The notes under the pieces were generated by a model. The model saw only the letters and a program-made list of their open reading frames with translations, searched no databases and had not been told where the DNA came from. Positions 13,610-56,817 of a stretch of 64,000 nucleotides of DNA are shown piece after piece. Every line of letters starts with the position of its first letter. The first letter of the stretch is position 1. The position numbers and the translations under genes are program-made. Origin of the DNA: a virus; the IMG/VR virus record IMGVR_UViG_3300035018_000013, positions 18,054 to 82,053 of that record. One strand, 5' to 3'.

Positions 13610-14569
13610 TCAGGCTTTTGTCGGGTACAGCTCGCAGCCCAACGCTTTAAGTGACTGAATATGATGCCGCCAGTTCAGCATATTCATCCGGCTTTCATAG
13701 GCTGCCAACTGTACCGCCTTATCTGCACCAACTGCCGACTCATGATCACTGCCTAATTCATATCGAAAGTCCAGTGGATAGGGCGAGAACGTTTTGCCAT
13801 CACACCGGGCTTTGTGGCTATCTGCCCAACGAATACCCACCAGCCAACTCGACGAGTCACCAGAGTTAATAGGCATGGCGTTTAGCCACTCATTCGGCGT
13901 TAAGCCCAGCAAATGAATCCACAGATGCGGATATTTGCGATGTCGTTCCCAAGCTGTGGCTACCAGTTGCTTGCGAGTTGCTCGGTCAGCCTGTACAACG
14001 TTGCCGAAGCAGATGCGATCGTAGCGCTCGGCAAGGTAATCAAAATAGTCCCACCCATCGTTAAACGGGTGATAAACAGGAATCGGTCGCAGCCCCATTC
14101 CTTCCAGCTTCGCGCGGGTTTTAATTTTGTTCTCCCGTCCGCCCTGGTCTAGTTCAATGAAGCCCCAGCACTTATCGCCTAACCGTCGATAAATGGCGAT
14201 GTACTGTTCTAATAGTTCATCAAATCCGTCGATTTCATTTGGTGGCAATGCCAGCGCTTGATCCATGTTGCAGCCGTGAGCCTTGGCGTGTTGCTGGGTC
14301 AAGTGGAAGATGCCGGAGTCGATGAAAACCTTTTTGCCCCGATCGCACCATTGTTCAATCAAATCGACGGCACCCGCATTTTGCAATTCATTCACCGCAA
14401 TCAGCAGATGATCATAGAGCGGTTCAGCTAGTGCCAGCCGCCCTGTTCCTGATGCCAGGAAGTAAACATTTTCTTCAGATGGGTCAAAGGTGCCACCGCC
14501 TGTTTTAAGCACGTTGGACACTGCCCACCCCCTTGACGTTCTCGTATTGGTCAAGGATGTGCCCAGCAA
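13610..14569 (-). CDS. dpdA: DpdA-like tRNA-guanine transglycosylase paralogue (DNA deazaguanine insertase); GTG at 14512 is a likely start
   Basis: TGT-fold motifs in order: VFIDSG, FIELDQ, PIPVYH, ICFGN, IHLLG, SGDSSSW; no C-terminal Zn site of tRNA TGTs. Confidence 0.8.
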   Translation of the reverse strand: MLGTSLTNTRTSRGWAVSNVLKTGGGTFDPSEENVYFLASGTGRLALAEPLYDHLLIAVNELQNAGAVDLIEQWCDRGKKVFIDSGIFHLTQQHAKAHGCNMDQALALPPNEIDGFDELLEQYIAIYRRLGDKCWGFIELDQGGRENKIKTRAKLEGMGLRPIPVYHPFNDGWDYFDYLAERYDRICFGNVVQADRATRKQLVATAWERHRKYPHLWIHLLGLTPNEWLNAMPINSGDSSSWLVGIRWADSHKARCDGKTFSPYPLDFRYELGSDHESAVGADKAVQLAAYESRMNMLNWRHHIQSLKALGCELYPTKA

Positions 14570-15374
14570 TGTATTCGTCAGGCTGCACCATGACCAGCGA
14601 TCGCTCTTCTGCCTTGAGAGTCAGTGGGACAAATGGACCGGGATAGGGTGCGAAAATCGCATCTTCTTTCAAATAGCCAGTCCACTTCTGCCAATCAGTC
14701 ATGACATCAGCCACAACCATAATGTGCCGACCCAGGTTCCAGACATCGCCCTTATTAACCTCGTGGCGAGGGTTGGCGATCGTGATTTCTGTCAGTGCCA
14801 GCAAGGAGCCGTCTGATTTCTGCCCTGATTCCTGATGGTCGGGATCTGCTGATTCATCATCTTCAGGTGATCCTGAGTTTTGAGAGGTGTGATTGCCCCC
14901 TGCTGGTGACATGGGCGTGCCATTCTCGCCAAATATTTGTTTATCCTGAAAGTTCAGAACTCCCAAGTTGAAAATGCTGTCACATTCCTCAAGAGAAAAC
15001 CCAGTCAAATCTAAGTCAAAATCAAGCTCCTGTAGAGCTTCTAGTTCCACTTTGAGCGATTCGTAATTCCAATCTGAAATGCCCACCTTATTATCGGCAA
15101 TGCGGCAGGCTTTCTTCTGTGCCGGGGTCAGGTCATCCCGAATGATCACCGGAACTTCTAGTAAATCCAGCTTGCGGGATGCCAGGTGGCGACCGTGCCC
15201 TTTGAGGATTACGCCGTCCTCATCCACAACGATCGGCACATCGAAACCATATTCGATGATTGACCCCGCGATCGCGTCAATCTGGCTCGGTGGATGGAGT
15301 TTGTTATTCAGAGGATAGGGCGTAATCTTATCGATCGGCACCCAAATAATTTCAGGAGAGAACTGCTTAGCCAT
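14505..15374 (-). CDS. ParB/Srx-like N-terminal domain protein coupled to dpdA
   Basis: IDKITPYPLNNKLH...SIIEYGFDVPIVVDEDGVILKGHGRHLA...ACRIADNK; GDVWNLGRH linker as in ParB-methylase fusions. Confidence 0.85.
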   Translation of the reverse strand: MAKQFSPEIIWVPIDKITPYPLNNKLHPPSQIDAIAGSIIEYGFDVPIVVDEDGVILKGHGRHLASRKLDLLEVPVIIRDDLTPAQKKACRIADNKVGISDWNYESLKVELEALQELDFDLDLTGFSLEECDSIFNLGVLNFQDKQIFGENGTPMSPAGGNHTSQNSGSPEDDESADPDHQESGQKSDGSLLALTEITIANPRHEVNKGDVWNLGRHIMVVADVMTDWQKWTGYLKEDAIFAPYPGPFVPLTLKAEERSLVMVQPDEYIAGHILDQYENVKGVGSVQRA

Positions 15375-15434
15375 GCCGCAGCCTCCTAGTTAGAGTATTC
15401 ATTTCTTACCTCGTAGATGCGCTCTAAAATTCCC

Positions 15435-15878
15435 TCAGCGAACCAGGCTTGTGACCCGTTCAGGCGACTCGAAAACATCTACTCGCAGTAATTTAATATG
15501 GGGGTCAAGCTGAATTTTGGCAAAATACAGGCACAAATCTTCTGTAGTGCCGCCAGCCAAATCTTGATGATCATTAATTAACTCAGGTAGCTCAGAACAA
15601 GAATACTTGAGCAAGTTTTCTTGTTCAATCATGTCTAAGCCATACATACCAGAGATGCTTCTTTCTGCTTGCAAATGCAGCGTCACCCGAAAATCATGCC
15701 AATGGTCATCCTGCCAAATGGGCGGGTTAAAGTGCCTGCGCCTGAATGAGTGGCTAATCTGATAGTGAAATATCACAGGGCACTCATGGGCGCAGCCTTG
15801 AGAATAGGGTACGGAAAGCCCTCGCAATGCCTCTGGGTAGTGCGATCGCGCCTTAAAGCTTGGCTTGAAGTTTTCCAT
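15435..15878 (-). CDS. queD: QueD-like 6-carboxytetrahydropterin synthase (atypical, no active-site Cys visible)
   Basis: H-x9-HWH triad, TTEDL (PTAEN-like), VFESP; coupled to queE. Confidence 0.65.
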   Translation of the reverse strand: MENFKPSFKARSHYPEALRGLSVPYSQGCAHECPVIFHYQISHSFRRRHFNPPIWQDDHWHDFRVTLHLQAERSISGMYGLDMIEQENLLKYSCSELPELINDHQDLAGGTTEDLCLYFAKIQLDPHIKLLRVDVFESPERVTSLVR

Positions 15879-16510
15879 TACTGCACCCCAATAAACTTAT
15901 GGGTTTGCAGACTTAATCTAAACTTAGGATGCTGTTTGAGCAGGTCTAGAGTAAGTGGCAGAGTGCGATCGCGCTCATTCCATTCAGGTTGCAAACAAGC
16001 ATTCCGAAGCGCAAGGTGCTTGTAGTAAAAATCAACTTCTTGCCCGGATGAAATCACAATCTTAATTTCATTAGCCCGCTGCCACATCTCTGAATGAACG
16101 GGATACTTCGGAGATAAATGCTGCTTTGGAGAAAGCGTCACCCATGTCGGATTTGGAATATTCTGCCAAAAAGCACCAGAGGTTTCAATCTGCACTTGTC
16201 GCCCAGTCGCGGCGATCGCTTCTACCAACATCGGCAGTTCTTTGTGAATGAACGGCTCCCCGCCAGAGATAACAACATGGGGCGATCGCAGTTCGTTGAT
16301 TAATCCTGCGATGGTGCGATCGCTTCGAGGTGTACTTTTACCGCCGTCTGCATAACCTGTGTCACACCAAGGGCAAGCAACAGGGCAACCTGCCAGCCGA
16401 ATAAAATCAGCGGGAGTGCCAGCCCAATAACCCTCACCCTGGATTGTTTCAAAGAATTGCTCGTGAATTGGCAGAGTAGTCTGCTGCGTAAATAGAGTCA
16501 AATTTTTCAT
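15878..16510 (-). CDS. queE: 7-carboxy-7-deazaguanine synthase, radical SAM
   Basis: [33 protein letters not shown]; VVISGGEP; IETSG; LSPK; LQPE; LSLQTHK. Confidence 0.95.
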
Positions 16511-22907: not shown

Positions 22908-23413
22908 CGCCTGAATAATTGCTTAAGTTTGATTTTTTGAACGCGATTCGTGTTCCTCAAAGACTTATCCCACACGCCTCGCCCTGGAATTCTAATAGTC
23001 GTTTTACTGGGCTTAAAATAAACTTTATACCGTCCAAACCAGCGCCGCATCCTCGGCGTAATCTGAATCGTTGCTCCAGAGTTCTGAACTTTAGTAATCA
23101 TCGTCGGTCTGCCGTTAGGGATGCCCAGCAATGATTTAGAAGCGTTCCCCATTCGCTTATGTCGCACCTGAATATGCTTGCGAATGCCTGAGCCGTTGGG
23201 GTTGCCCCGCAGGGTATAAAGATGGAGGGTGAGCGATCGCAATCTCGGTGAATGCTTGCCTCTGCCCTGCGTCCTCAAATGATCCAACATATTGTTATTC
23301 ATCAGCTCAGCTCCCTCCCTTGCCCATTGCTCCCCCTTATCTGGAAGGGCTTTAAGGCTTTGCAGCTTTTGATAAAGCTTGTCCCATTGCGATCGGTGTG
23401 AAAAATTGGGCAT
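22904..23413 (-). CDS. Neck/virion morphogenesis protein (HK97 gp10 / Mu gpG-like)
   Basis: Basic; ITKVQNSGATIQITPRMRRWF...TIRIPGRGVW pattern; start chosen at MPNFSH to avoid overlap with the divergent gene. Confidence 0.6.
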   Translation of the reverse strand: MPNFSHRSQWDKLYQKLQSLKALPDKGEQWAREGAELMNNNMLDHLRTQGRGKHSPRLRSLTLHLYTLRGNPNGSGIRKHIQVRHKRMGNASKSLLGIPNGRPTMITKVQNSGATIQITPRMRRWFGRYKVYFKPSKTTIRIPGRGVWDKSLRNTNRVQKIKLKQLFRR

Positions 23414-23450
23414 GATTCTAGAATTATTGCTCAGTATTATCAGCTTACCC

Positions 23451-24119
23451 ATGGCAAAGAAGGAACCCGTTAATCTCGAAGTCCCAAAGAACCTGGTCTT
23501 TAGAGAACAGCTAGAAATCCGCTACGTGCTAGTAGATGATCTCATTCTGCTAGATCAGAATCCCAAGCTGCACGATATTGGCAAGCTGGTAGATTCGATC
23601 GTGGAAAATGGATTCCTTGACCCGCCCAAATGGGATACGAAGCTGAACGGCGGCGCGGGCGGCATCATTGAAGGAAACGGGCGATCGGAAGCCCTCAAAT
23701 GGATGCAAGAGCAGGGTCGAGAGATTCCTAGAGGCATTGCAGTCAATGAGCAAAACCTGTGGGCGGCACCTGTTATTTTTGGTTGCGATGCCCGTTCTGA
23801 GATTGCAGCAAAACGATATGCGATCGATCACAATAATCTCGTTATGGCAGGCGGTAACTTTTCCGCCCTAGACATGAGCCGTGCCTATGATGCCGAGTCT
23901 TACATCGCCATGCTTCAAGAGCTTGATCAGCAGCAATTTTTGCCCCTAACGCTAGATGGTGAGGACTTAGAGCTTTTGCTAGGGAAGCTGGAGGGCGATC
24001 GCGCTGCTGGAAATGGTGACGACGATCTGCCTCCAAATCATGAAAATATAAATGAACCTAAATTAGGCAAAACTAATTGCACTTGTCCAAGCTGCGGTTT
24101 TGAATGGGAGAAAGATTGA
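23451..24119 (+). CDS. Second ParB/Srx-like protein with C-terminal CxxC zinc ribbon
   Basis: LVDDLILLDQNPKLHDIGKLVDSIVENGFLDPP...IIEGNGRSEAL...AIDHN; CTCPSCGFEW. Confidence 0.75.
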   Translation: MAKKEPVNLEVPKNLVFREQLEIRYVLVDDLILLDQNPKLHDIGKLVDSIVENGFLDPPKWDTKLNGGAGGIIEGNGRSEALKWMQEQGREIPRGIAVNEQNLWAAPVIFGCDARSEIAAKRYAIDHNNLVMAGGNFSALDMSRAYDAESYIAMLQELDQQQFLPLTLDGEDLELLLGKLEGDRAAGNGDDDLPPNHENINEPKLGKTNCTCPSCGFEWEKD

Positions 24120-24503
24120 TCAATCCGGCAATATCACGACTTGGTGTAACACGACTGCCCCTCTACTTCTCAACCCCATTTGATACACCACAGAATACCG
24201 CTTCCCTTCATGCACCAAACGACACCCCGGCTTAAAATCCTCTAGAGGCATATCGTGAGCGGCAAGGTAGCAGATCATCTCACCTGCCTGACTGTTGCCG
24301 CCCTTAACCGCAATTTCCTGATGTCCCTTGGGTGTCACAGGTGGAACAATATATCCCCGCACCTGCCGAGCGATCGCCTCTAGCTTATCTGCCACGCCCA
24401 AATCTCGATCGCCCGGAATCAGAACGCCAGGAATCTCCAAGGTAAAAACTTGCCCCACCTCGTTAATTAAATCAATTAATTCAGCTTCAGAGAACAACGT
24501 CAT
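24120..24503 (-). CDS. Putative head-closure/head-tail joining protein
   Basis: Size and position; FKPGCRLVHEGKRYSVV beta-barrel pattern. Confidence 0.55.
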   Translation of the reverse strand: MTLFSEAELIDLINEVGQVFTLEIPGVLIPGDRDLGVADKLEAIARQVRGYIVPPVTPKGHQEIAVKGGNSQAGEMICYLAAHDMPLEDFKPGCRLVHEGKRYSVVYQMGLRSRGAVVLHQVVILPD

Positions 24504-25102
24504 TACGCCACCCGATACCTTGATTTACCCTCGCACTTGGGCGCTTCCCTAGCCTCTACAAACTTCAGAAAAATCTCAACCAATTCAGGATCATACAAAC
24601 CCGTATCGCGCTCGTAACTCAAAAGATTAATGGATTCCTCAACCGTAAAACTAGACTTGTACGTCCGATCGCTCCTAAACGCTGTCCAAACATCGCACAA
24701 GCTAAACACCCGCACCATAAACGGAATGTGATCACCCCTTAGCCCATTCGGATATCCCGATCCATTCCAGCGCTCATGGTGGTACAGCGTAATTAACGAG
24801 GCGGATTCAATCTCTGGAATTTGCCGCACCATTTCATAGCCCAGCGTTACGTGGTTCCGCATCACCGCCCATTGGGATGCGCTCAGCCGACCGGGATAAC
24901 GCAAAATTTCATCAGGAATAAGCAGTTTGCCAATATCATGAATATACGCGCCAATCTCTAGGGATTCTATCTGCTCCATAGATAAATCTAGATACTCCCC
25001 AAACGCGATCGCCAGATCAGCTAAATCCTTCATTTTCTCAGGCGGATTTTTTACCATCATTTGCTGGCTAATTAAAGCCAAAAACGTTGCTTTATTAATC
25101 AT
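24503..25102 (-). CDS. Stand-alone HD-GYP domain protein (cyclic dinucleotide phosphodiesterase family)
   Basis: GAYIHDIGKLLIPDEIL..PGRL; MRNHVTLG; HHERWNGSGYPNGLRGDHIP; CDVWTAFRSDRTYK. Confidence 0.9.
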   Translation of the reverse strand: MINKATFLALISQQMMVKNPPEKMKDLADLAIAFGEYLDLSMEQIESLEIGAYIHDIGKLLIPDEILRYPGRLSASQWAVMRNHVTLGYEMVRQIPEIESASLITLYHHERWNGSGYPNGLRGDHIPFMVRVFSLCDVWTAFRSDRTYKSSFTVEESINLLSYERDTGLYDPELVEIFLKFVEAREAPKCEGKSRYRVA

Positions 25103-25119: not shown

Positions 25120-25749
25120 TTACCTTGAACCTGTTGTAAAAATTTGGGTTTTATATTGTTCTAGGGGTAGCATTAGGCGATCAAGTTCGGTGCCGCCATT
25201 ATTCCCAGAAGGGCGATCGCTGCCACCCACTTTATACTTTTTCTTGAGTCCGCCCGGCAACGAGATTTCTTCTGTATCTCGCACGGGCTGACTGAGCATG
25301 GCTAAACTTCCCGCAGACAGTTCAAAGACCTTAGCCAGAATCTCGAAAGCGACATCTGTAAATATCTTTGGAACAGGCTGCAAACCCGCGTTGTAAAGGA
25401 CTTTGAAACAAGTATGGGGATATTGTAAATCAATTAATCTAATATCCCCGATCGCCATTTTATCTAGTAAGGGCAGCGATCGGGGAGGCTGCCCAGGCGC
25501 GTTCTCAACACTGTTTACCGCAATGAGCGGATAATACGTCAAAAGCGCCAAAGTCGAATCGGAACTACAGACAGTTTCCGAATACTCCATTGACGCTACT
25601 CTATACCCAATCCATTCATCCATTCGGCTTTCTATCTGCTCTAAAAAGAATTCAAGCTTCTCGGTAGAAGGCATTGTTTCTTCTGTAAAAAAGCCTAACA
25701 ACAATAGTCGTTTCTGTGCTTCCAACACAGACAGATAAGCCAGTGGCAT
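25120..25749 (-). CDS. Head-tail connector/adaptor protein
   Basis: LEQIESRMDEWIGY...LTYYPLIAVNSV...KVLYNAG; downstream of the capsid gene. Confidence 0.65.
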   Translation of the reverse strand: MPLAYLSVLEAQKRLLLLGFFTEETMPSTEKLEFFLEQIESRMDEWIGYRVASMEYSETVCSSDSTLALLTYYPLIAVNSVENAPGQPPRSLPLLDKMAIGDIRLIDLQYPHTCFKVLYNAGLQPVPKIFTDVAFEILAKVFELSAGSLAMLSQPVRDTEEISLPGGLKKKYKVGGSDRPSGNNGGTELDRLMLPLEQYKTQIFTTGSR

Positions 25750-25758
25750 TCTGATTCC

Positions 25759-26103
25759 TCAAGTTTTGCGCGCACTCTTCGAGATACCTGGCGATCGCTT
25801 GGATTTAGTTATCTCAGCTTCATTATCCTGCTCATTGTCCTCTTCTTCAATGTTTTTGTCATCATTTTCATCAATAGTCTCATCCTCCTCTTTGGCTGAG
25901 TTTGTACTAGCCTCTGAAGTCGGGAGAGGATTTTCAGGAAGAGAAGTCACGATGCGATCGGGTTTGACGGCGATCGCATAACCCTTGGCAATTAACCACT
26001 CCTCTTGATCTGGGGTAAAAGATTTTGAAGACAAAGGACGCATCAAAGATACGCCCCTCACCATCATTACCTGTTGCCGCCATTTACTTGTTGCAAAAAT
26101 CAT
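25759..26103 (-). CDS. Hypothetical protein with acidic tail
   Basis: Between capsid and adaptor genes; C-terminus contains a partial dispersed-repeat copy (25775-25788). Confidence 0.5.
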   Translation of the reverse strand: MIFATSKWRQQVMMVRGVSLMRPLSSKSFTPDQEEWLIAKGYAIAVKPDRIVTSLPENPLPTSEASTNSAKEEDETIDENDDKNIEEEDNEQDNEAEITKSKRSPGISKSARKT

Positions 26104-26142: not shown

Positions 26143-27207
26143 TTAAGCTGTGTACGACCAAGCCGTACCGCGATCGCAGCGGAGATTCACTCTCCAAATG
26201 CAATCGCCCTTTGTTTTCGCCTTCAGTGTTCCGTAAGCTACTAACAAACGGGACTCAGTTAGGGGAACGTTTGAAACAAAAGTGGACACTTCAAACAACT
26301 GTGGCTCGAATGTATTTTCACCACCAAAAGGAACAACTCCATGCCATTCAAGTTGATCTTCATCTAGCAACCAAAAAGGCAGGATATCAGGATCGTCTAC
26401 AGTAGCGCCAGGTTCGTCATCAATGAACGGCGACATGACGATCGGCACTAACCCGTAGGGAGTCATGAGCGCCTTCACCATCACGCCTGGGGTGAATTCC
26501 ATATCTTGCAGAATCAGGCGACGATCTTCTACCTGCTTTTGAATTTGATACCAGCCACAGCCAGATGTATAGACCGCTGTAATCTTGCGATCGTAAGTGC
26601 GGTTAGTGGTAGAGCGGGTGACATATTCCACCAATTTAGAACCCACGTTATCAGGCTCAGCCCCGGTAATATCAATCAGGTAGGGAGTCCGCCCTGCAAT
26701 GATTTGGTTGTAGATGCCGTTAAACTCTAGCGGGTTTGTTGTGGCATTCCCGACGAATAGCGCTCTCTCTAGATTCTTGGTAGCACTAGCAATCATATCG
26801 GCAGTATCGATCGCCACTTGATCGCCATAGGGACGACCTTGTTGTTCATACAGCGATCGCTCGTAATGCCCCCAAGCTTTGCGACCCATAATCGCCTTAA
26901 CTTCTTGACCCGTATCACTCAGGTTGTTACGCACACCCGTTTGATCTAAAACCGAAGTTTCCAGAGCGTTCTTGTTGGCAAATCCGGTTGACGGCAAACC
27001 TGTACGAACAATTTCCTTCACTACGTCATCAGTCGCAGCGACTTTTTTAATGCGCGACCATAGACTGACATCGCGGTTCAGGTAGTCGGTAATTTCTGGC
27101 TGAAAGTCAGAGCGATAGGTAAAGCTCCCCCGGTTAGTCGCGGCACCCCGAATCAGGTCTTGAACCTCCTGAGCAGCAGCTTGAACATTGACAAAAGTTG
27201 CAGACAT
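26143..27207 (-). CDS. Major capsid protein (HK97 fold)
   Basis: 354 aa after the protease/scaffold gene; LERALFVGNATTNPLEFNGIYNQI; TPYGLVPIVMSPF. Confidence 0.85.
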   Translation of the reverse strand: MSATFVNVQAAAQEVQDLIRGAATNRGSFTYRSDFQPEITDYLNRDVSLWSRIKKVAATDDVVKEIVRTGLPSTGFANKNALETSVLDQTGVRNNLSDTGQEVKAIMGRKAWGHYERSLYEQQGRPYGDQVAIDTADMIASATKNLERALFVGNATTNPLEFNGIYNQIIAGRTPYLIDITGAEPDNVGSKLVEYVTRSTTNRTYDRKITAVYTSGCGWYQIQKQVEDRRLILQDMEFTPGVMVKALMTPYGLVPIVMSPFIDDEPGATVDDPDILPFWLLDEDQLEWHGVVPFGGENTFEPQLFEVSTFVSNVPLTESRLLVAYGTLKAKTKGDCIWRVNLRCDRGTAWSYTA

Positions 27208-27240: not shown

Positions 27241-28740
27241 CTAAGCCACTCCAGTGGAGGCTTTCAAGGCGTGTAATTGATCGCGCAATGCAACGCGACG
27301 GGCGAGGGATGCCGGATCACGACGGCTTTGTAGCTCCTCTAGCTGCCCTTCAAGTTTGTAGATTTGAGCCGCTTGAGGATCGATCGCCTCTCCACTAGCA
27401 GCGGCAGAAATAGCGGTGCTGAGCCGCGCAGGTTGACCGCTGGGGTTCATCATTTCCCGAACGGATTGCAGGGTGGTTTGGCGAATCATCGCCTGCATTT
27501 CTTCCCGCTGAGTTTTTGCTTTGTTCTCAGCATCAATTGATTCTTGGGCTTTAATTGCCGCATTGCGATCGTCGGTCAATTGATTAACGTTGGTTGTGAG
27601 TCGATCGATCGTTGCTTGGGACTGGGTTTGAGCCGTAACCAATGTGCCTAAAGTCTCGGTCAAAGCTGCAAGTTGCTTAGTAATCTCTTCCACGTTCTCA
27701 TCTCCTAAATCGGGTAAATTTTCATCTTGAGTTGCTGCCGCGATCTGGGCGATCGCCGGAACTAACTCCGGTCTCTTTTCCGCTACAACCTGCGTATTAG
27801 AATAAGTCGCCTTATCCGCATACAAGATACAAGCGCCCAGCAACGTGAGCTTGTCGAGAACGTGAACCTCACGTCCGTCGATCGTCTCCACATGACCCGG
27901 TGCCAGAGCATTGATAGACGCTCCGAGCTTGTCCTTTTCCAAGCGAATTTGAGCAACCCGTTCGGGCTTGTTGTAGGGGAAAAGATTGGCTTTGACCCAG
28001 AACCCGCCGTTGCGAATTTGGGCGCTCAGCATCACGCCAACAATCTCTTCATCGGCGTGCTTACTTAAGGTTGGGTCAGCGTCCAAAGGTAGATAAGGAA
28101 CCTGGGCGATCGCTGCCTTCGCTACTTCTGTCGAAACGTACAAAGGGCGACCGGGACCAACCGACGGGATTCCTTCAGAGGGTTGGTCTAAGTCGAACAG
28201 TTTGATTTCGATCGGGCATCGGTTGTTATTAGCAGCGGCTTCAATGAAGTCCACCCCATTGCATTTCATCTGGATAAAATCGGTTTCTGTCGAAGCCTTA
28301 ATGTTCGCCTGCACCGTCATGGCGGTTTTATAGGTCGCTGCCAAATCTCTAAGAATCGTCGTCAAATCAGTGATCATGCTCTCGACTTCGGCGGGGTCGC
28401 TTTCGTCCTCACCCTCGGTCATCTCGTAGCATTCCTCAGTGAAATAGTAGGAAAACATATTGAGAGCAAGGTCAAGGCGGTTGTACCAGGTGCAGCGGCG
28501 AACGTACCGCACATAGTCCGATTCAGCGCTCAGCAAGTTGCTTTGACTGGCTTCAACTCCATCTTCATCCGTTGCTCCAGCCTCTTCTAAGAGCGATCCA
28601 ATATCGTCCAAAAAAGAAGCCATAGACTTCTGAATTGCTTTAAGCTTCTTTGCGTTTTTGCCGCTTAACATTTTGCCTGCGGCGGAGACGGCAGAAGTAT
28701 CTGTGTGTCCGAATCCGTTAAATGGTCTACGTTGTGGCAT
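27241..28740 (-). CDS. Prohead protease/scaffold fusion
   Basis: SKHADEEIVG...GFWVKANLF...LGAS...LLGACIL protease-like core; C-terminal coiled coil; between portal and capsid. Confidence 0.65.
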   Translation of the reverse strand: MPQRRPFNGFGHTDTSAVSAAGKMLSGKNAKKLKAIQKSMASFLDDIGSLLEEAGATDEDGVEASQSNLLSAESDYVRYVRRCTWYNRLDLALNMFSYYFTEECYEMTEGEDESDPAEVESMITDLTTILRDLAATYKTAMTVQANIKASTETDFIQMKCNGVDFIEAAANNNRCPIEIKLFDLDQPSEGIPSVGPGRPLYVSTEVAKAAIAQVPYLPLDADPTLSKHADEEIVGVMLSAQIRNGGFWVKANLFPYNKPERVAQIRLEKDKLGASINALAPGHVETIDGREVHVLDKLTLLGACILYADKATYSNTQVVAEKRPELVPAIAQIAAATQDENLPDLGDENVEEITKQLAALTETLGTLVTAQTQSQATIDRLTTNVNQLTDDRNAAIKAQESIDAENKAKTQREEMQAMIRQTTLQSVREMMNPSGQPARLSTAISAAASGEAIDPQAAQIYKLEGQLEELQSRRDPASLARRVALRDQLHALKASTGVA

Positions 28741-28891: not shown

Positions 28892-30121
28892 TCAAGCGAT
28901 CGCCCCTGCTTTAGGCTTCCCGCCGAACTCCTTCCCTGATTCATCCTCAAGCGGATCGAACCCCAGCTTTACCCGTCCCTCATCCCGTGTGATCAATCCA
29001 CTATCGTAGGTTTCCCGAATCTCCTGATTTCTTACAGCCTCCGATCGCGGCTCTCGGTAATCTCTAACAAATCTGAACCCTGGCAGGAAAAAATCAATCA
29101 CCTCCCCGTCATAGCCCTCATCCATTGTTTGAGCGATCGGGATAATGGCGCGCTGAAAAGTGGTGTCCGCAGAGGCTTCACTGGTCGCGCGGTTATCGTG
29201 TTCCGTGATATTGGCATCACGGCTAGTCAGGGAAAAAGCCAACATGACGACATTCGTTAAAAACTGCGAGTATTGCAGATAAAGTTGATCATCCCCCGAT
29301 GCTCCAATCTTGATCGCTGTCGCCGTCCCAACCCCGCCCATAATGGGTTTCTTCTTTTTCTGAACCACTTCCAAATCCCAGTAAGACCGGAACGCCGTTA
29401 GCTGGGTTTCGTTGACATTCCCCAAGTGTAAAAGCCATTCCTGAGCCGCCTCGCTGGTTGTCTTTTGCTGGTAGTCGGACAGTCCCAGCCAGGCATTCAA
29501 AAAGCCGTATGCAACCTCTAGAGGACTAGGGGGGACTAGCTCGTAGGAATTGACATTGTTGAGCAGCATAAAAGCATTTTCGGAAAGCAGCGATCGCGGG
29601 TTGCCGCCTAACTTGTAATCTAAGAACTTAGGCACAACGCCCTCAACGTAGGGACTCCATTTAGGGTTGATCCGAATGAATGCCGCATCACAGCTCCAGA
29701 GCCAAAAGGGGCGCTCGACCTCCCCCGGCTGGCGTTCGCAAACGGCATAGTTGAGGGTTAGCAAATCGTCAATTAATGCTGAGGTAAGCTGGCGGTAGTT
29801 GTTCAGGGTTGCCTCGGCGTTGGGGCGCTTAATGGCGCGTGTCGCGTTACTAGCCAGGGCGATCGCGGCTTCATTGGTTTTCTTGTCGGCAGGCGGCTCA
29901 ATGTGCCAGGGCATCCTCAGAACGCCCTCTGTGATTTGCTTGATGGCAGAGAACGCCAAAGCGACCTTACTGAACCGTCTGAGCTGACCTGCCTGGATGC
30001 GATCGGCGTTAGAGATGGGGCGCAGTAAGCTCTTTTCCTGAGCAAACGGATAGATCGGCAGACTGGAAAGAGCCGAGTTCTGTTTGATGGGAGTGGATAG
30101 CCGCTTGTTGTTCTTTGCCAT
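28892..30121 (-). CDS. Portal protein
   Basis: 409 aa; LIDDLLTLNYAVCE; PPSPLEVAY; GLITRDEGRVKLGFDPL. Confidence 0.85.
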   Translation of the reverse strand: MAKNNKRLSTPIKQNSALSSLPIYPFAQEKSLLRPISNADRIQAGQLRRFSKVALAFSAIKQITEGVLRMPWHIEPPADKKTNEAAIALASNATRAIKRPNAEATLNNYRQLTSALIDDLLTLNYAVCERQPGEVERPFWLWSCDAAFIRINPKWSPYVEGVVPKFLDYKLGGNPRSLLSENAFMLLNNVNSYELVPPSPLEVAYGFLNAWLGLSDYQQKTTSEAAQEWLLHLGNVNETQLTAFRSYWDLEVVQKKKKPIMGGVGTATAIKIGASGDDQLYLQYSQFLTNVVMLAFSLTSRDANITEHDNRATSEASADTTFQRAIIPIAQTMDEGYDGEVIDFFLPGFRFVRDYREPRSEAVRNQEIRETYDSGLITRDEGRVKLGFDPLEDESGKEFGGKPKAGAIA

Positions 30122-38128: not shown

Positions 38129-38944
38129 ATGTCAAGCTTGATTACGATCGCCCAATCCTTTCGCAGCACTGAACCTCAGCAACAAGCGATTCAGTGGTTC
38201 CAAGATTCAACCGGGAAGCAGAAGCAGCAAGAATTCGCCCTGCAATGGCGCAATGGCGAGGACAAGGGAGCAATTAGCTTTGTCGATGCCTTTAGATGCT
38301 ACAAGGCTATCGCTCATCAGAATGCTGCCCTCAAGTGGCTGGAGAGCAGCAGCCAGATAAGAACCATCATGGAACTAGAGAGGTTATGGAAAAAAATAAT
38401 TGATTCTCCCAGCCAAGATATTAGGCTGAAGGTGCCTTATTTTCAGCAGGTGGACAATAAATTTGAACCGATGCGGACGTGCAACACCTCTAGCTGTGCC
38501 ATGGTAGCTCGATTTTTAGGCGCGAAAATCTCCAGCGACGACGAATACTATCAGCACGTCATTAAGTATGGCGACACGACCGATCATACGGCTCAGACCT
38601 ATGCACTGAAGGCGGTCGGTATTCGATCGATTTGGCGGACGGATTTAGACTTCGCGGATCTAGATGGGGCGATCGCGGCGGGTCTACCCGTAGTCATTGG
38701 CATTTTACATCGAGGGACGCTGAATGCTCCCGAAGGTGGACACATGATTGTCGTGATTGGATTAACCAGCCAGAAAGACTATATCTGCCACGATCCATTC
38801 GGCAGCCTACTGGATGCCGCTGGCGGGTATACGGGTGATGTGACTAATGGCTGTGCAGTGGTTTACCCTCGCGCTGTCCTGAATCGTCGCTGGTTGGTAG
38901 AGGGCGATCGCACGGGCTGGGGTCGCTTGTTCTCCAAGATTTAG
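38129..38944 (+). CDS. C39-like cysteine peptidase with duplicated N-terminal helical motif (endolysin candidate)
   Basis: LKVPYFQQ...TCNTSSCAM...GGHMIVVIG...ICHDPFG; repeats QQQAIQWFQ and HQNAALKWLE. Confidence 0.85.
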   Translation: MSSLITIAQSFRSTEPQQQAIQWFQDSTGKQKQQEFALQWRNGEDKGAISFVDAFRCYKAIAHQNAALKWLESSSQIRTIMELERLWKKIIDSPSQDIRLKVPYFQQVDNKFEPMRTCNTSSCAMVARFLGAKISSDDEYYQHVIKYGDTTDHTAQTYALKAVGIRSIWRTDLDFADLDGAIAAGLPVVIGILHRGTLNAPEGGHMIVVIGLTSQKDYICHDPFGSLLDAAGGYTGDVTNGCAVVYPRAVLNRRWLVEGDRTGWGRLFSKI

Positions 38945-39676: not shown

Positions 39677-41173
39677 TCAAACCATCGGCGGCTGTGGCTG
39701 CGGTAAAACATCTCTAGGATTAACCGCGCCTTGGTTGGGATCATGAACCTCAAAATGCAGGTGAATGGCATAGGCATTATCAGACCCAAACCCACTGCCA
39801 CCCCGCACCGCGATCGCTTCTCCCCCCTTCACCTGCTGTCCTACCTTCACCTTGATTGAAAGCAAGTGAGCATAACGGGTCATGAATCCAGTGGGGTGCT
39901 TAATATCAATCATCCGACCGTAGCCGCTGCCGTCCCAATCTGCAAATTCTACCGTCCCATCACCCGCTGCAAACACGTCATCACTACCGAAGCCGCCCAG
40001 GTCAATCCCTTCATGCATCCTGCCTCGCGCCGTTCCAAACTCGCATTTCTCCCCTGCCACATTGCAGTCATTCGGGTTCATTGCCCACTGTAAATTAGAG
40101 GGGCTAGCTCCCCCCGCAAACGATCGCACTGCCGCCGCTGTATTTTGATCGGGCGGCTGGCTGGCATCATGCCTAAATATCTGAGGCTTGGGTGCATTCG
40201 GGTCGGGCTGATGGGCGAATAGTTCCATTTCCAGTGTCCCACCGCAGTACAGCTTCACAGTTTCGATCGTCATTTCTCCGTCTAAACCCGTCCCAAAGTT
40301 TTTACCCTGAAATTTCTTGGTCGGTGCAAACGTGAGCAATTCTGGATATTCAGCCGGGTTTAGCCAAGTGTGCAATTGAATCACTTTTTCCCGATCGAGG
40401 GAGTGTAAGCCTAGCGCATAGGCGAGGGCATCGCCTTGAGTGGGCGGGTTAACGCTGCCACCCGCGATCGCCCGACTGCCAGCATTGCCCGTGTCCACAC
40501 AGTTCAAGCCATAGTTGCCGGGGAGCGATAGAGAAGCGATCGCATTGGGGTCAATCCCTGATTTGAATACCTCAATACCGCGATCGACACAAGGCTTAAA
40601 CACCTCTCCATAATCGTTGTTATAGCCCGTTGCAGAGCCGTTAATTCGTCGCCTGACCTCGTGCCAATCGCCAGCGTCCGCAGGTTCTACGCAGCGTTGA
40701 TCGGGGTTGTGTTTCCCCATCCAATACAGGATTGCTACCTGAGCGGCAATCTCCGGTTCATTCGCCTTATCGGGGTTGTTCACTAAATCAATGCCCAGCA
40801 AATCGCCCATTGATTTGTAGTTATAGTCCCAAGTGAGCTGGAAGTAACCCCGCCCATAATAAGGAGCGTAGGGAGCGCTGCCGCCCTCTATCTCGCTGCG
40901 GGGTACGAACTTGGGTAAAGTTTCCACATAGAACGTGGCAACGATGCCGACTAACTGATTCTTGCTCGTCAGTCCATTCGCCGCCATTGCCTTGAGAATG
41001 TAGGGCAAATTCTTTTCAACATCACCCCGATTTGCATCAGGACAAACCTTCAATATCTCCTCAATTGTGGGCGATGGAGGCGCGGCGTTGGTAACTGTAG
41101 GTGCAGGTTGAGCGGTGCTGGAAGCGGCTCCGGTAGTGGGGGCGATCGGCTGGATGGGTTGGGTGTTTTCCAC
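39677..41173 (-). CDS. Tail-associated lysin: GH19 lysozyme/chitinase plus M23 peptidase
   Basis: FYVET...YYGRGYFQLTWDYNY; HEGIDLG...YGRMIDIKH...YAHL...HLHFEV. Confidence 0.9.
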   Translation of the reverse strand: MENTQPIQPIAPTTGAASSTAQPAPTVTNAAPPSPTIEEILKVCPDANRGDVEKNLPYILKAMAANGLTSKNQLVGIVATFYVETLPKFVPRSEIEGGSAPYAPYYGRGYFQLTWDYNYKSMGDLLGIDLVNNPDKANEPEIAAQVAILYWMGKHNPDQRCVEPADAGDWHEVRRRINGSATGYNNDYGEVFKPCVDRGIEVFKSGIDPNAIASLSLPGNYGLNCVDTGNAGSRAIAGGSVNPPTQGDALAYALGLHSLDREKVIQLHTWLNPAEYPELLTFAPTKKFQGKNFGTGLDGEMTIETVKLYCGGTLEMELFAHQPDPNAPKPQIFRHDASQPPDQNTAAAVRSFAGGASPSNLQWAMNPNDCNVAGEKCEFGTARGRMHEGIDLGGFGSDDVFAAGDGTVEFADWDGSGYGRMIDIKHPTGFMTRYAHLLSIKVKVGQQVKGGEAIAVRGGSGFGSDNAYAIHLHFEVHDPNQGAVNPRDVLPQPQPPMV

Positions 41174-54251: not shown

Positions 54252-56180
54252 TCAAGCTCTAGAACCAAAAGCAAAATTAGGCTCCTCGACATACCCCGCT
54301 GCCAGCACTGCCATTTCTGCAAAGTTATCGGCATGGAATAAGTGATCAGGCGCTCCGGGAACTTGCACCCACTGTCCATCCATCCGACGATCGCTTGTCA
54401 AATAGTGATAAATCAGATTGAGATCATCACCTGGATCATAGGTTGAGCCACTGGGCAATCCCTGTTGTCCTCGGTAAATCCGAGTGCGTACAGAATCCAA
54501 TCCAAACGATCGGTGCAGGGCATAAACAGGCACCTTTTCACCCTGCACATCCCGTTCTGATATCTTAAACTTTTCGCCTTTTAGCTTGAGTTGGTCAAAC
54601 AGAAAAGTCTGTCCCAACCCTGATTCCATGTGCATATCGTGATACTTCAAATCACCGGATAAATCAATTGATAGCTTGCAGTGAGGATGCTTCCGAGCAT
54701 AGTCGGCGGCAAGCTGAATCTCTGGCTCATTATCCATCCCGATTAAGTTCACCTGATGTTCCCGCAAAAAGTCTTCACTAGGGAACCCGTGAATTTGCCC
54801 CGTCCAGATGACCTCCTTAAAAGCCTCTAGCCATTTGCGCTCCCAATCTCCTTCACGTCCTAAGTACCACTTCTGAATCTGCACCCAGTTTGCCGCCTTG
54901 CCCTGGTCTAATCCCAACACAATTAAGTCATGGGGGCGATCGCCCGGTGCCGTTCTCCCCACACAGTCCATTAATTTCTTGAGGCTAATCTTACCCCCTC
55001 CCAGTGACACAGTTTTGCCCAAGCCTTGCTGTAATTGGTCAGCCGGATCAGAGGTGTAAACGAGTTTGTAAATTCGTTCTGAAGGTCGAAATAAAGACGA
55101 AGCTAATCGGGGCAAATCGATCGCCACGGGCTTAATGACTGGCGTTTTATTCTGAGTAATCTCACGACAAAAATCAGTTAATGTTTTATTCCCAGATTCA
55201 AAAATACCTGCCTTAATTGCCTCCCAGGTTAGTTCCTGTTCGCAGTGCCTACAGCCGATATATGCCGTATCAATCATCGACTGGCGATCGCTCTCGTCAT
55301 GGCAAAACCATTCATAGGGTCTGCCCGTCATGTCTACAAATCTTTCCTCCTCCCCTTCGCCTTCACTCTCCACCATGACAGGCTTTAAGAAGTTTCCAAA
55401 AGCATCCAAGTTTTGTCTTGTGCCGCAGTGAGGACAAGTCACAAACCATTGAAACATCATGCCAGATTGCTTAATTTGGCTGTCCACAATGCCGCCCTCA
55501 ACTCCTGGCGTAGAACCTGCTCTAAATGGTTTAGTGGGCATGGTGCAAGCGGATTGGCGTTCTGTCGCAATATCGATCGCCCCTTCAGCCCATAGCTCAA
55601 TTTCATCAGCCAGAACCACGAACGCTGTGAAAGAAGACATTTTAGGAGATGCCCGCCGCTGCTCCTTATTGGCGGCTGGTAAATGTGCAGAAAAAAAGGT
55701 TAGCTCAATGCCGCCTACTGTAATTTTTTCCTGTTTATCTACATCTTTCCGGCGCGTGATATTCCAACGTGCCAGTCTGCGTTTTTTAATGGGGTCAATG
55801 TGGTCAAAACTGGGCTGTATTCTTGGGGCAACGGTGCCCCGCAGCTTGCCTTCCTGCTCAAATCCCATAGCGGCAGGGATGCAGATTTCACAAACCAGGA
55901 ACGAGGCGATCGCAATCAATGATTCGGTAAACCCAACCTGCGAAGGCTTCGTCACAATTAAGCGCTCAATCCATGGACACGCCAGAATTGTGTAGTATTG
56001 CTCCATGAAAGGCTCGTCCCATCTCAAGCGATCGCCCCCACTCATGCGGTAATGTTTTTTAATCCAGGCGATCGGGTAAGCGCTGCCCTCTGAGTACCAC
56101 CGAGCCACGCCCTTTTTTCGAGCATCAATTAAGGCTTTGCTGAATAGCTCCATCTGGCTAGAGTTTTCAGCGATCGTCAT
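54252..56180 (-). CDS. terL: Terminase large subunit (lambda gpA-like)
   Basis: VTKPSQVGFTES; VLADEIE; GSTP; VTCPHCG; LGLDQG; DHLFHADNF; start at ATG 56180 overlaps terS by 14 nt. Confidence 0.9.
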   Translation of the reverse strand: MTIAENSSQMELFSKALIDARKKGVARWYSEGSAYPIAWIKKHYRMSGGDRLRWDEPFMEQYYTILACPWIERLIVTKPSQVGFTESLIAIASFLVCEICIPAAMGFEQEGKLRGTVAPRIQPSFDHIDPIKKRRLARWNITRRKDVDKQEKITVGGIELTFFSAHLPAANKEQRRASPKMSSFTAFVVLADEIELWAEGAIDIATERQSACTMPTKPFRAGSTPGVEGGIVDSQIKQSGMMFQWFVTCPHCGTRQNLDAFGNFLKPVMVESEGEGEEERFVDMTGRPYEWFCHDESDRQSMIDTAYIGCRHCEQELTWEAIKAGIFESGNKTLTDFCREITQNKTPVIKPVAIDLPRLASSLFRPSERIYKLVYTSDPADQLQQGLGKTVSLGGGKISLKKLMDCVGRTAPGDRPHDLIVLGLDQGKAANWVQIQKWYLGREGDWERKWLEAFKEVIWTGQIHGFPSEDFLREHQVNLIGMDNEPEIQLAADYARKHPHCKLSIDLSGDLKYHDMHMESGLGQTFLFDQLKLKGEKFKISERDVQGEKVPVYALHRSFGLDSVRTRIYRGQQGLPSGSTYDPGDDLNLIYHYLTSDRRMDGQWVQVPGAPDHLFHADNFAEMAVLAAGYVEEPNFAFGSRA

Positions 56181-56817
56181 CCGGCTCTGCGTAGTCGGAC
56201 TCAAACCCCAAGGCGTTCTCAATTGCATTCGGCGGCTCCACTTTAAATCCTGCTTTTTGTAATAGTGTGGCGGCTGTGTTGAGGTTGCCGACCGCAGCTT
56301 CGCCGAGTTTGTCCCCGATCGCCAGAAACTTGGCAGCATTTAAAAACTGTTTCCAGTCGGCAGCCTTGATATTCGTGACCAATAATCCGTTCTCTTCATT
56401 GCGAGTTGTCGTCTGATTCACGATGGGCATTTTCAGCATGGTTTCAGCCTTTGCCCGAATTGCCTCATAGTGATTCCAGCGATTAGATCGCAGAACCTGC
56501 ATCTTAATATCCCACTCTCGATCTTCATCCTGTTGCTTCTCTAAATCCCATGCCTGAACCCGTTCTTCCCACTGCCAGCGATCGATATGAGCAAACCAGC
56601 TACCCGGTATCCTTGCTTCTGGTTTAAAGCACTTTTTGATGCTTTCTGATGCCTTATCCTTGAGAGCCATCTCGTTCAAATACACCGATCGCTTCGATCG
56701 CTTGCCCACCTGATTCCGATAAGCACAAAACCTTCTGAACCAGTCAGTAGGCTCATTGGGCTGCCGCTCCCAAATGGGTTCGACTAACTCTGCACTAAGG
56801 TTTACAGGCTTTTTCAC
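56167..56817 (-). CDS. Terminase small subunit
   Basis: Directly upstream of terL; WERQPNEP...FCAYRN...WQWEERVQAWD. Confidence 0.65.
   Translation of the reverse strand: MKKPVNLSAELVEPIWERQPNEPTDWFRRFCAYRNQVGKRSKRSVYLNEMALKDKASESIKKCFKPEARIPGSWFAHIDRWQWEERVQAWDLEKQQDEDREWDIKMQVLRSNRWNHYEAIRAKAETMLKMPIVNQTTTRNEENGLLVTNIKAADWKQFLNAAKFLAIGDKLGEAAVGNLNTAATLLQKAGFKVEPPNAIENALGFESDYAEPDDDR

Follow-up and report, generated by a model that had tools for sequence, protein, structure and literature searches.

HD-GYP proteins, familiar as bacterial regulators and classed as class II phosphodiesterases that hydrolyse c-di-GMP to pGpG or GMP with the help of metals, are recognised by a match to the HD_5/HD profiles together with a fold of about seven helices, and the reference member used here is PmGH from Persephonella marina, a phosphodiesterase of cyclic di-guanosine monophosphate (c-di-GMP) in which alanine substitution of either H189 or D308 abolishes activity and in which the contact made by the KPG loop goes through the main chain (PMC4159591). 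Xanthomonas RpfG has Phe at the position of H189 (PMC4159591), and the closely similar Lysobacter RpfG lacks this first His yet hydrolyses c-di-GMP robustly (Galperin preprint). Regulators of the RpfG type, in which a receiver (REC) domain is joined to the HD-GYP domain, are described as c-di-GMP phosphodiesterases; RxY[K/R] is described as a c-di-GMP specificity motif, and RxxQ/N has been linked to a preference for cyclic GMP-AMP (cGAMP) (Galperin preprint). The present analysis concerns a stretch of 64,000 nucleotides (nt), referred to below as the window, which covers positions 18,054 to 82,053 of the IMG/VR virus record IMGVR_UViG_3300035018_000013 and carries, within a string of head and neck genes, a gene for an HD-GYP protein of 199 amino acids (aa). 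By sequence comparison, this protein belongs to a small phage-only HD-GYP lineage of six members (the clade), which is cleanly separated from other HD-GYP proteins, is under purifying selection, has a fixed place among neck genes and has undergone the coordinated loss of one metal ligand and its two hydrogen-bond partners. With moderate confidence, the protein is regarded as a phage-adapted HD-GYP that would act as a functional, late-made and unregulated c-di-GMP phosphodiesterase.

The HD-GYP domain and its metal site

The gene and the motifs within it are as follows.

24503..25102, minus strand: stand-alone HD-GYP gene, 199 aa (HD_5 match, AlphaFold2 (AF2) model, Foldseek and clade membership)
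24935..24940, minus strand: HD dyad, H55 and D56 (read in the sequence; invariant within the clade)
Residues 55-59, minus strand: HDIGK motif (read in the sequence)
24773..24781, minus strand: HHE motif, H108, H109 and E110 (sequence and alignments)
Residues 108-118, minus strand: HHERWNGSGYP motif (read in the sequence)
24749..24757, minus strand: GYP motif, G116, Y117 and P118 (sequence and clade alignment)
24683..24694, minus strand: DVWT stretch, residues 137-140 (phmmer alignment to 4mcw and column statistics; residue roles from PMC4159591)
24656..24667, minus strand: RTYK stretch, residues 146-149, with R146 and K149 of the guanine-binding RxY[K/R] motif (alignment)
25034..25039, minus strand: codons of E22 and K23, with K23 in the column of PmGH H189 (alignment)

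The open reading frame (ORF) at 24503-25102 matches the Pfam family HD_5 (PF13487) over profile positions 21-170 of 170, with an expectation value (E) of 6.6e-28 and a score of 98 bits against a cut-off of 27.2, while a second family, HD (PF01966), matches at E 2.7e-14; the Pfam scan of the 199-aa protein gave no domain beyond these two, and no PHROG match was found for it. The sequence-only reading of this DNA, which had described a stand-alone HD-GYP protein with HDIGK, HHERWNGSGYP and R-x-YK motifs and no sensor domain, is borne out on each of these counts. An AF2 model built from 27 homologues had a mean predicted local distance difference test score (pLDDT) of 92.4, and its Foldseek matches were all HD-superfamily proteins, among them PmGH (4mcw), with a template modelling (TM) score of 0.81 over 182 columns that cover the whole HD-GYP fold, and PA4781 (4r8z), with a TM score of 0.80 over 199 columns. 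Because this confident model superposes on the entire domain of PmGH and PA4781, the phage protein is, as modelled, a complete HD-GYP domain and not a truncated one. It combines the profile match with the predicted fold of the family, and both the HD dyad (H55-D56) and the GYP signature (G116-Y117-P118) are present; the GC content of the gene, 0.46, is like that of the neighbouring genes.

Residues were mapped by phmmer alignment to PmGH (4mcw), with the mutational and structural roles given in PMC4159591, and column statistics were taken over 350 HD-GYP domains from the closest database matches. The correspondences, PmGH first, are listed below.

H221 and D222 (metal ligands, the HD dyad): H55 and D56 in the phage protein
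H250 (metal ligand): H84
H276 and H277 (metal ligands): H108 and H109
D305 (metal ligand): D137
K225 (stabiliser of the metal centre): K59
Y285 (contact to the phosphate ring): Y117
R314 and K317 (bind one guanine): R146 and K149
H189 (first His metal ligand): K23, the His being missing
R192 and D308 (hydrogen-bonded to H189): D26 and T140, both partners being missing
E185 (optional ligand of a third metal): absent, with N19 at this place by ungapped extension

Six of the seven shared metal ligands (H55, D56, H84, H108, H109 and D137) are retained, and the first His is replaced by K23; judged from the alignment, this incomplete set lowers the claim to a canonical active HD-GYP and leaves domain membership untouched. 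The first-His column holds His in 313 of the 350 domains, which confirms that the upstream His ligand reported missing from the sequence is truly absent. The column of D308 holds Asp in 254 domains and Glu in 33 (287 together), with T140 in the phage protein. The earlier description of the D-x-F-D-A motif as DVWTA is therefore right in so far as the motif is altered (T140 for D308), but the metal-ligand Asp (D137) is kept, and the Asp that has been replaced supports the missing His structurally and does not itself bind metal. As for the substrate contacts, Y117, R146 and K149 are present and the KPG loop is altered to YPG, its lysine, found in 292 of the 350 domains, being replaced by Y69.

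Across the six clade proteins, which share 35-80% identity, H55, D56, H84, H108, H109, E110, R111, the GYP motif, C136, D137, W139 and R146 are invariant; position 149 of the RxY[K/R] motif is Lys or Arg in all, and I126, counted as a binding residue, is conserved. Other positions vary, reading K/D/D/S/S/N at position 23, K/K/H/N/N/N at position 59 and T/L/C/H/H/H at position 140, and neither the first His (H189) nor either of its partners, R192 and D308, occurs in any of the six members. In six of six proteins an acidic residue stands in the loop that leads into the first-His helix; it is Glu in four of them, among these E22 of the window protein, and Asp in the other two. This acidic residue might take over as a metal ligand, as might the His that three members have at position 140.

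The phage clade, its neck-gene setting and the host element

When a profile built from four members was run on 5.8 billion sequences, six proteins stood out with scores of 272-338 bits; a generic REC-HD-GYP regulator came next, with 169. In a maximum-likelihood tree (midpoint rooting only) the six proteins are monophyletic with support of 100/99 on a long stem, and their sister group (84/89) consists of REC-HD-GYP response regulators of 340-363 aa, one of them from a genome of the host's family, Leptolyngbyaceae. Eight sisters were checked, seven of which have the canonical DHCxRL and DxxDAL, the eighth reading the equivalent GHCERL. Because the sister regulators keep the first-His/Arg motif and DxxDAL, the loss of the His/Arg/Asp triad is placed, by this comparison, on the phage stem.

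All six clade members lie in phage contexts, and the order adaptor, HD-GYP, head closure (Hc1) is repeated in three related phage contigs, L030, L031 and L035. The contig L031 (IMG/VR UViG_3300005673_000003; 148.7 kb), whose portal and capsid proteins are 58% and 50% identical to those of the window, has the same order of capsid, small protein, adaptor, HD-GYP and Hc1 as the window; L035 is closely related to L031, L030 less so, and the ends of the adaptor, HD-GYP and Hc1 genes overlap in both. In another related phage, L034 (a 480-aa protein 47% identical), the HD-GYP gene stands at a different place, and the closest homologue, P0002 (49-50% identity), is encoded on L003 (JGI metagenome contig Ga0456421_07478), a phage contig with tail-fibre genes. 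More distant phage relatives, with capsids 34-42% identical, have at the same junction nothing (L011), a 95-aa gene (L028) or a proteasome-like gene (L010). A same-genus genome (G051) with a capsid 85% identical is without HD-GYP, adaptor and Hc1 genes, but its contig has about 1.3x coverage and the phage is barely assembled, so this absence is uninformative. Between L031 and L035, the ratio of nonsynonymous to synonymous substitution rates (dN/dS) is 0.12 for HD-GYP and, for the adaptor gene beside it, 0.08, both ratios being approximate with dS near 1; none of the six members has a disrupted ORF. Absence from related phages together with signs of decay, which the sequence-only reading had named as counting against its case, is not what was found: the gene occupies the same slot in L030, L031 and L035, its dN/dS is low and its frames are intact. 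HD-GYP is a conserved phage gene under purifying selection and not debris.

In the Thermoleptolyngbya metagenome-assembled genome (MAG) G002, the gene that directly follows the adaptor gene (L010:9519-10154) encodes a 211-aa protein resembling a proteasome subunit (PF00227, E 3.4e-5), and the site after the adaptor gene looks like a hot spot for mobile accessory genes in this phage group. A second, more degenerate HD-GYP-like ORF of 200 aa, reading HDFGQ, HHCR with an insertion, GYP and DMFDA, lies about 5 kb downstream of the neck copy in L031 (L031:11499-12101) and has no counterpart in the window. A metagenome scan with the clade alignment gave no confirmed relative, and a nucleotide search of INPHARED with the structural region gave no match. 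The protein search of INPHARED (50,697 phage records) matched 31 records, 30 of which are unannotated faecal contigs named "Bacteriophage sp."; the only named phage among them, Microcystis phage MaAM05 (L029, MW495066.1, 28652-41149; record of 274 kb), is not counted as a precedent, since the surroundings of its HD-GYP gene look bacterial (secE-nusG-rplK-rplA, a tRNA gene, coaD and a type III secretin) and its label, "3'3'-cGAMP-specific phosphodiesterase 3", is an automatic name.

In the window, the string runs on the minus strand in the order portal, 499-aa protein at the scaffold position, capsid, 114-aa acidic protein, 209-aa adaptor, HD-GYP and 127-aa Hc1-like protein. The genes around HD-GYP are as follows.

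28892..30121, minus strand: portal protein (Pfam Phage_portal, E 4e-13; PHROG 2662, E 4.5e-18)
27241..28740, minus strand: 499-aa coiled-coil protein at the scaffold/prohead position (position; homologues in all related loci)
26143..27207, minus strand: major capsid protein (PHROG 752, E 2.5e-9; homologues of 34-85% identity in related phages)
25759..26103, minus strand: 114-aa acidic protein between the capsid and adaptor genes (weak homologues at the same position in L010, L026, L031 and L035)
25120..25749, minus strand: head-to-tail adaptor (neck) protein, 209 aa (AF2 fold match; syntenic homologues in related phages)
24120..24503, minus strand: head-closure (Hc1-like) protein, 127 aa (PHROG 161, E 3e-4; syntenic homologues in L011, L028, L030, L031 and L035)

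The HD-GYP gene starts at 25102, 17 nt past the stop of the gene at 25120-25749, and its stop shares one base with the ATG of the gene at 24120-24503 (TAATG; CATTA on the plus strand at 24501-24505), so both spacings given by the sequence-only reading hold and HD-GYP is tightly embedded in the head-neck string. The 209-aa protein at the adaptor position has no profile match; its AF2 model (pLDDT 70.8) finds its best matches in neck/adaptor chains of DT57C (8hqo_P), RcGTA (6toa), the T5 portal complex and phage 812, which upholds the name of adaptor that it had been given. In a scan around HD-GYP, promoter-like sites of the sigma-70 type and terminator-like sites were no more frequent than in shuffled sequences. 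The gene was also considered as a phage moron, an autonomous cargo gene with its own promoter and terminator, and this is not supported, as there was no signal above chance in this sigma-70-type scan and the gene is bounded by the 17-nt gap upstream and the 1-nt overlap downstream. A GGGTA motif that precedes the Hc1 start by 22-27 nt lacks conservation among the relatives and occurs 46 times per strand in the window, and an Rfam scan of the window found neither a c-di-GMP riboswitch nor any other Rfam family. Between the head-closure gene and the next structural genes of the minus strand lies a ParB-like gene on the plus strand (23379-24119; PHROG 620, E 9.6e-16), which also resembles the N-termini of phage DNA methyltransferases.

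Since the window is positions 286,514-350,513 of a 520-kb contig in a 4.9-Mb genome of 29 contigs, the element is a large prophage of a filamentous cyanobacterium and not a free phage. Relatives of its phage genes occur in Leptolyngbyaceae and other cyanobacterial MAGs, and its other genes include a large terminase, a baseplate wedge protein, a GH19+M23 lysin and DpdA/QueD/QueE-like genes; no tyrosine integrase was found on the contig of the window. The element runs beyond both window ends, where phage-like genes flank it, namely a 798-aa protein with a Tail_P2_I domain and an M15-like peptidase on the right (L033, C28:350514-370513) and an SNF2 helicase on the left (L032, C28:266514-286513), and its length is probably well over 85 kb. 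Genes resembling DpdA/TGT (PHROG 887, E 5.6e-22), QueD (PTPS) and QueE (radical SAM) stand at 13610-16510 of the window and hint that the phage DNA carries 7-deazaguanine modifications. A giant minus-strand ORF of 3662 aa, which extends from 56850-64000 of the window to C28:354351 and starts beyond the window end, adjoins the large terminase gene (54252-56339), and a gene for a C39-like cysteine peptidase (38129-38944, plus strand) adjoins that of the GH19+M23 lysin (39677-41173, minus strand). The host has a complete c-di-GMP network, with 14 GGDEF, 7 EAL and 2 PilZ domains (the latter in frames of 767 and 826 aa) and one HD-GYP of its own, which speaks for c-di-GMP as the substrate. Leptolyngbyaceae is a non-heterocystous family, so heterocysts, which had been listed among the processes that the protein might rewire, do not apply to this host.

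Candidate functions

If the protein is a c-di-GMP phosphodiesterase, as we favour, it probably originated from the output domain of a REC-HD-GYP (RpfG-type) regulator through loss of the receiver domain, and its gene would have become fixed between the neck-adaptor and head-closure genes in a lineage of large cyanophages. Because of the 17-nt gap after the adaptor gene and the overlap with the head-closure start, it would be co-produced with the head and neck proteins, by co-transcription and translational coupling with the neck genes, and so made late in lytic growth and in quantity; because it has no sensor domain, its activity would be constitutive. One metal site, formed by D56, H84, H108 and H109, is intact, and the other keeps H55, D56 and D137 without the first His and the two hydrogen-bond partners; Lysobacter RpfG offers a precedent for activity in the absence of that His (Galperin preprint). 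A binuclear, possibly mononuclear, centre built from D56, H84, H108 and H109 with H55 and D137 would activate a water molecule that opens the cyclic dinucleotide, while the substrate would be held by Y117 at the phosphate ring and by R146 and K149 at one guanine. Since this tyrosine and the Arg/Lys pair are kept, c-di-GMP is the most likely substrate; the RTYK of the phage protein, with K or R in the six members, is not of the RxxQ/N type of Bd2325 and Gmet_3476. Hydrolysis would collapse the c-di-GMP pool of the host whatever the host senses, and low c-di-GMP at assembly and lysis may turn off matrix or cellulose synthesis and aggregation and alter pilus-dependent surface properties, by which the progeny, it may be conjectured, could escape the mat or avoid adsorbing to doomed cells.

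Several points weigh against a c-di-GMP phosphodiesterase of this kind. The phage protein has no equivalent of H189 or D308, the residues whose alanine mutants inactivate PmGH, and also none of R192, and K59, the counterpart of K225, which is essential in PmGH, is not conserved in the clade. Xanthomonas RpfG, without the same His, is reported to be weakly active or inactive (Galperin preprint). The argument for co-transcription with the neck genes is one of gene spacing, and among the sequencing runs the stretch occurs in one DNA run only, likely the assembly source, and in no RNA run. The benefit of late c-di-GMP removal to the phage is itself a conjecture.

A second reading, which is doubtful, holds that the protein hydrolyses a defence cyclic dinucleotide, 3'3'-cGAMP or another product of the cyclic-oligonucleotide-based anti-phage signalling system (CBASS), and thereby keeps the effector from being activated, in the manner of Acb1 and Acb5. 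The HD-GYP proteins V-cGAP1-3 of V. cholerae are cGAMP-specific (PMC4423081), and the phage protein aligns to V-cGAP3 (5z7c) at E 9.7e-27; its guanine-binding motif, however, is the canonical RxYK and not RxxQ/N, and the sister clade is made up of REC-HD-GYP regulators of the RpfG type, described as c-di-GMP phosphodiesterases. At the second-base pocket the clade has its own YPG or Q(S/P)G where KPG is usual, which could change base preference. On L003, P0002 lies 68 nt from a convergent, putatively Acb5-like gene with a precomputed match to Pfam PF26761 (Acb5), Acb5 being a validated cGAMP-cleaving anti-CBASS family (bioRxiv 10.1101/2025.07.12.664507); a search of the host genome with this L003 gene turned up nothing like Acb5, and the histidine-kinase and receiver genes beside HD-GYP on L003 point to signalling rather than immunity. 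The host genome, 100% complete, likewise yielded no SMODS/CD-NTase (PF18144), although with this single Pfam model divergent CD-NTases could escape, and the same model finds one in 3-4 of 57 genomes of the host order and in 0 of the 3 genomes available for the genus. The anti-CBASS role put forward by the sequence-only reading thus finds little support in the host, in the order, in the motif or in the sister group, and its description as an unusual class of anti-defence factor was overstated, since Iyer et al. 2021 (PMC7824862) had already predicted that jumbo-phage HD-GYPs serve as counter-nucleotide defence.

As to the region of L003 itself, two overlapping histidine-kinase-like genes at L003:6957-11085, one for an H-box protein of 196 aa and one for an HATPase_c protein of 183 aa, may be a single frameshifted gene. 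They are accompanied by genes for a receiver of 120 aa and for a receiver-like protein of 257 aa whose C-terminal part includes a membrane segment, and the set looks like phage-borne two-component genes beside an anti-CBASS-like gene.

It is improbable that the clade represents a new type of phage enzyme for counter-defence or host takeover whose metal centre has been rebuilt, with E22, or His140 in some members, standing in for the lost first His. Such an enzyme would be produced at the level of virion proteins, would perhaps travel in the particle, and would destroy, at a set moment of infection, a guanine-containing cyclic dinucleotide, be it an immune signal or c-di-GMP.

A third reading, also rather unlikely, is that of a non-catalytic binder, in which the altered domain would capture c-di-GMP or a related nucleotide but leave it uncleaved, serving as sponge or receptor, or would work through contacts with other proteins, as inactive RpfG members do. 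The losses of H189, D308 and R192, which in PmGH are lethal on replacement by alanine or are partners of such residues, and the variability of K59 agree with this, as does the conservation in the clade of the binding residues Y117, R146, K/R149 and I126; a degenerate c-di-GMP receptor does exist in DvhD (9rbz; TM 0.78 to the HD-GYP model), and a position in the structural operon could supply the copy number that a sponge needs. The non-catalytic HD-GYPs DvhD, HnoD and ECA3548, however, have lost HD and HHE, both of which the phage clade keeps, and six metal ligands invariant over six sequences down to 35% identity are hard to explain without selection on the metal site, so the sponge suggested earlier is disfavoured. 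That the gene is a passenger or structural accessory, either a decaying captured host gene or a virion/neck protein with an irrelevant enzymatic past, is very improbable, for although it lies between two neck genes, has an atypical ligand set and is absent in the distant relatives L011 and L028, its dN/dS is 0.12, its ORF is intact in six of six members, its active-site motifs are conserved, its GC content of 0.46 equals that of its neighbours, and a confident full HD-GYP fold is predicted with no extra structural module.

A literature search found no experimentally characterised phage HD-GYP, only the jumbo-phage prediction (PMC7824862). The favoured c-di-GMP phosphodiesterase bears on whether an HD-GYP works without the first His, which is the long-running question of RpfG activity, and raises that of why a cyanophage would remove a cyclic dinucleotide during head assembly. 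If the substrate is c-di-GMP, the clade would exemplify takeover of host behaviour in mat-forming cyanobacteria; if it is an immune signal, a new enzyme fold would enter the anti-CBASS repertoire.

Comparison with known systems

The best match in both sequence and fold is PmGH (4MCW/4MDZ), a trinuclear-iron enzyme (phmmer E 8.3e-30, TM 0.81), whose H221, D222, K225, H250, H276, H277, Y285, D305, R314 and K317 all have equivalents in the phage protein. The two differ in that PmGH has a GAF sensor and the phage protein none, and in the replacements E185 to N19, H189 to K23, R192 to D26, D308 to T140 and K235 (of KPG) to Y69; because the ligand and partner residues E185, H189, R192 and D308 are replaced, a trinuclear centre is not expected in the phage protein. 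The binuclear PA4781 of Pseudomonas aeruginosa (4R8Z) has an HD-GYP domain of similar size (TM 0.80) and likewise lacks the E185-type ligand of a third metal, but it is fused to a receiver domain, which the phage protein is not. We take PA4781 to keep the first His, on the family consensus and not on a check of the residue itself. The REC-HD-GYP proteins of the RpfG family form the sister group, and Xanthomonas RpfG is likewise without the His equivalent to H189; the family has a receiver, whereas the phage proteins have none and would accordingly not be under phosphorylation control, and the sister regulators that were checked keep the first-His/Arg motif and DxxDAL, which the phage clade does not.

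Acb1, a 2H phosphodiesterase, and Acb5, a tetramer that leaves 2',3'-cyclic products (bioRxiv 10.1101/2025.07.12.664507), are possible functional analogues whose folds and chemistry are unrelated to those of HD-GYP. The phage protein showed no homology to a validated Acb family (Acb1, Acb2, Acb4 or Acb5), its Pfam matches being HD_5 and HD only. To our knowledge, anti-CBASS activity has been shown for no phage HD-GYP. V-cGAP3 (5Z7C), to whose catalytic HD-GYP domain the phage protein aligns (E 9.7e-27), differs in having an extra degenerate N-terminal HD-like domain and in being a host regulator. DvhD reads SQ and NE at the HD and HHE positions, whereas HD and HHE are intact in the phage clade, so the clade is not of the DvhD/HnoD/ECA3548 type. 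The HD-GYPs of jumbo phages are likewise phage-encoded and have been proposed to degrade cyclic nucleotides, as a prediction only (Iyer et al. 2021, PMC7824862); they are set apart here by description, in that the clade of the window protein is a lineage of six members whose ligand set is remodelled and whose gene has its fixed site in the neck operon of cyanophages from a group that forms prophages.

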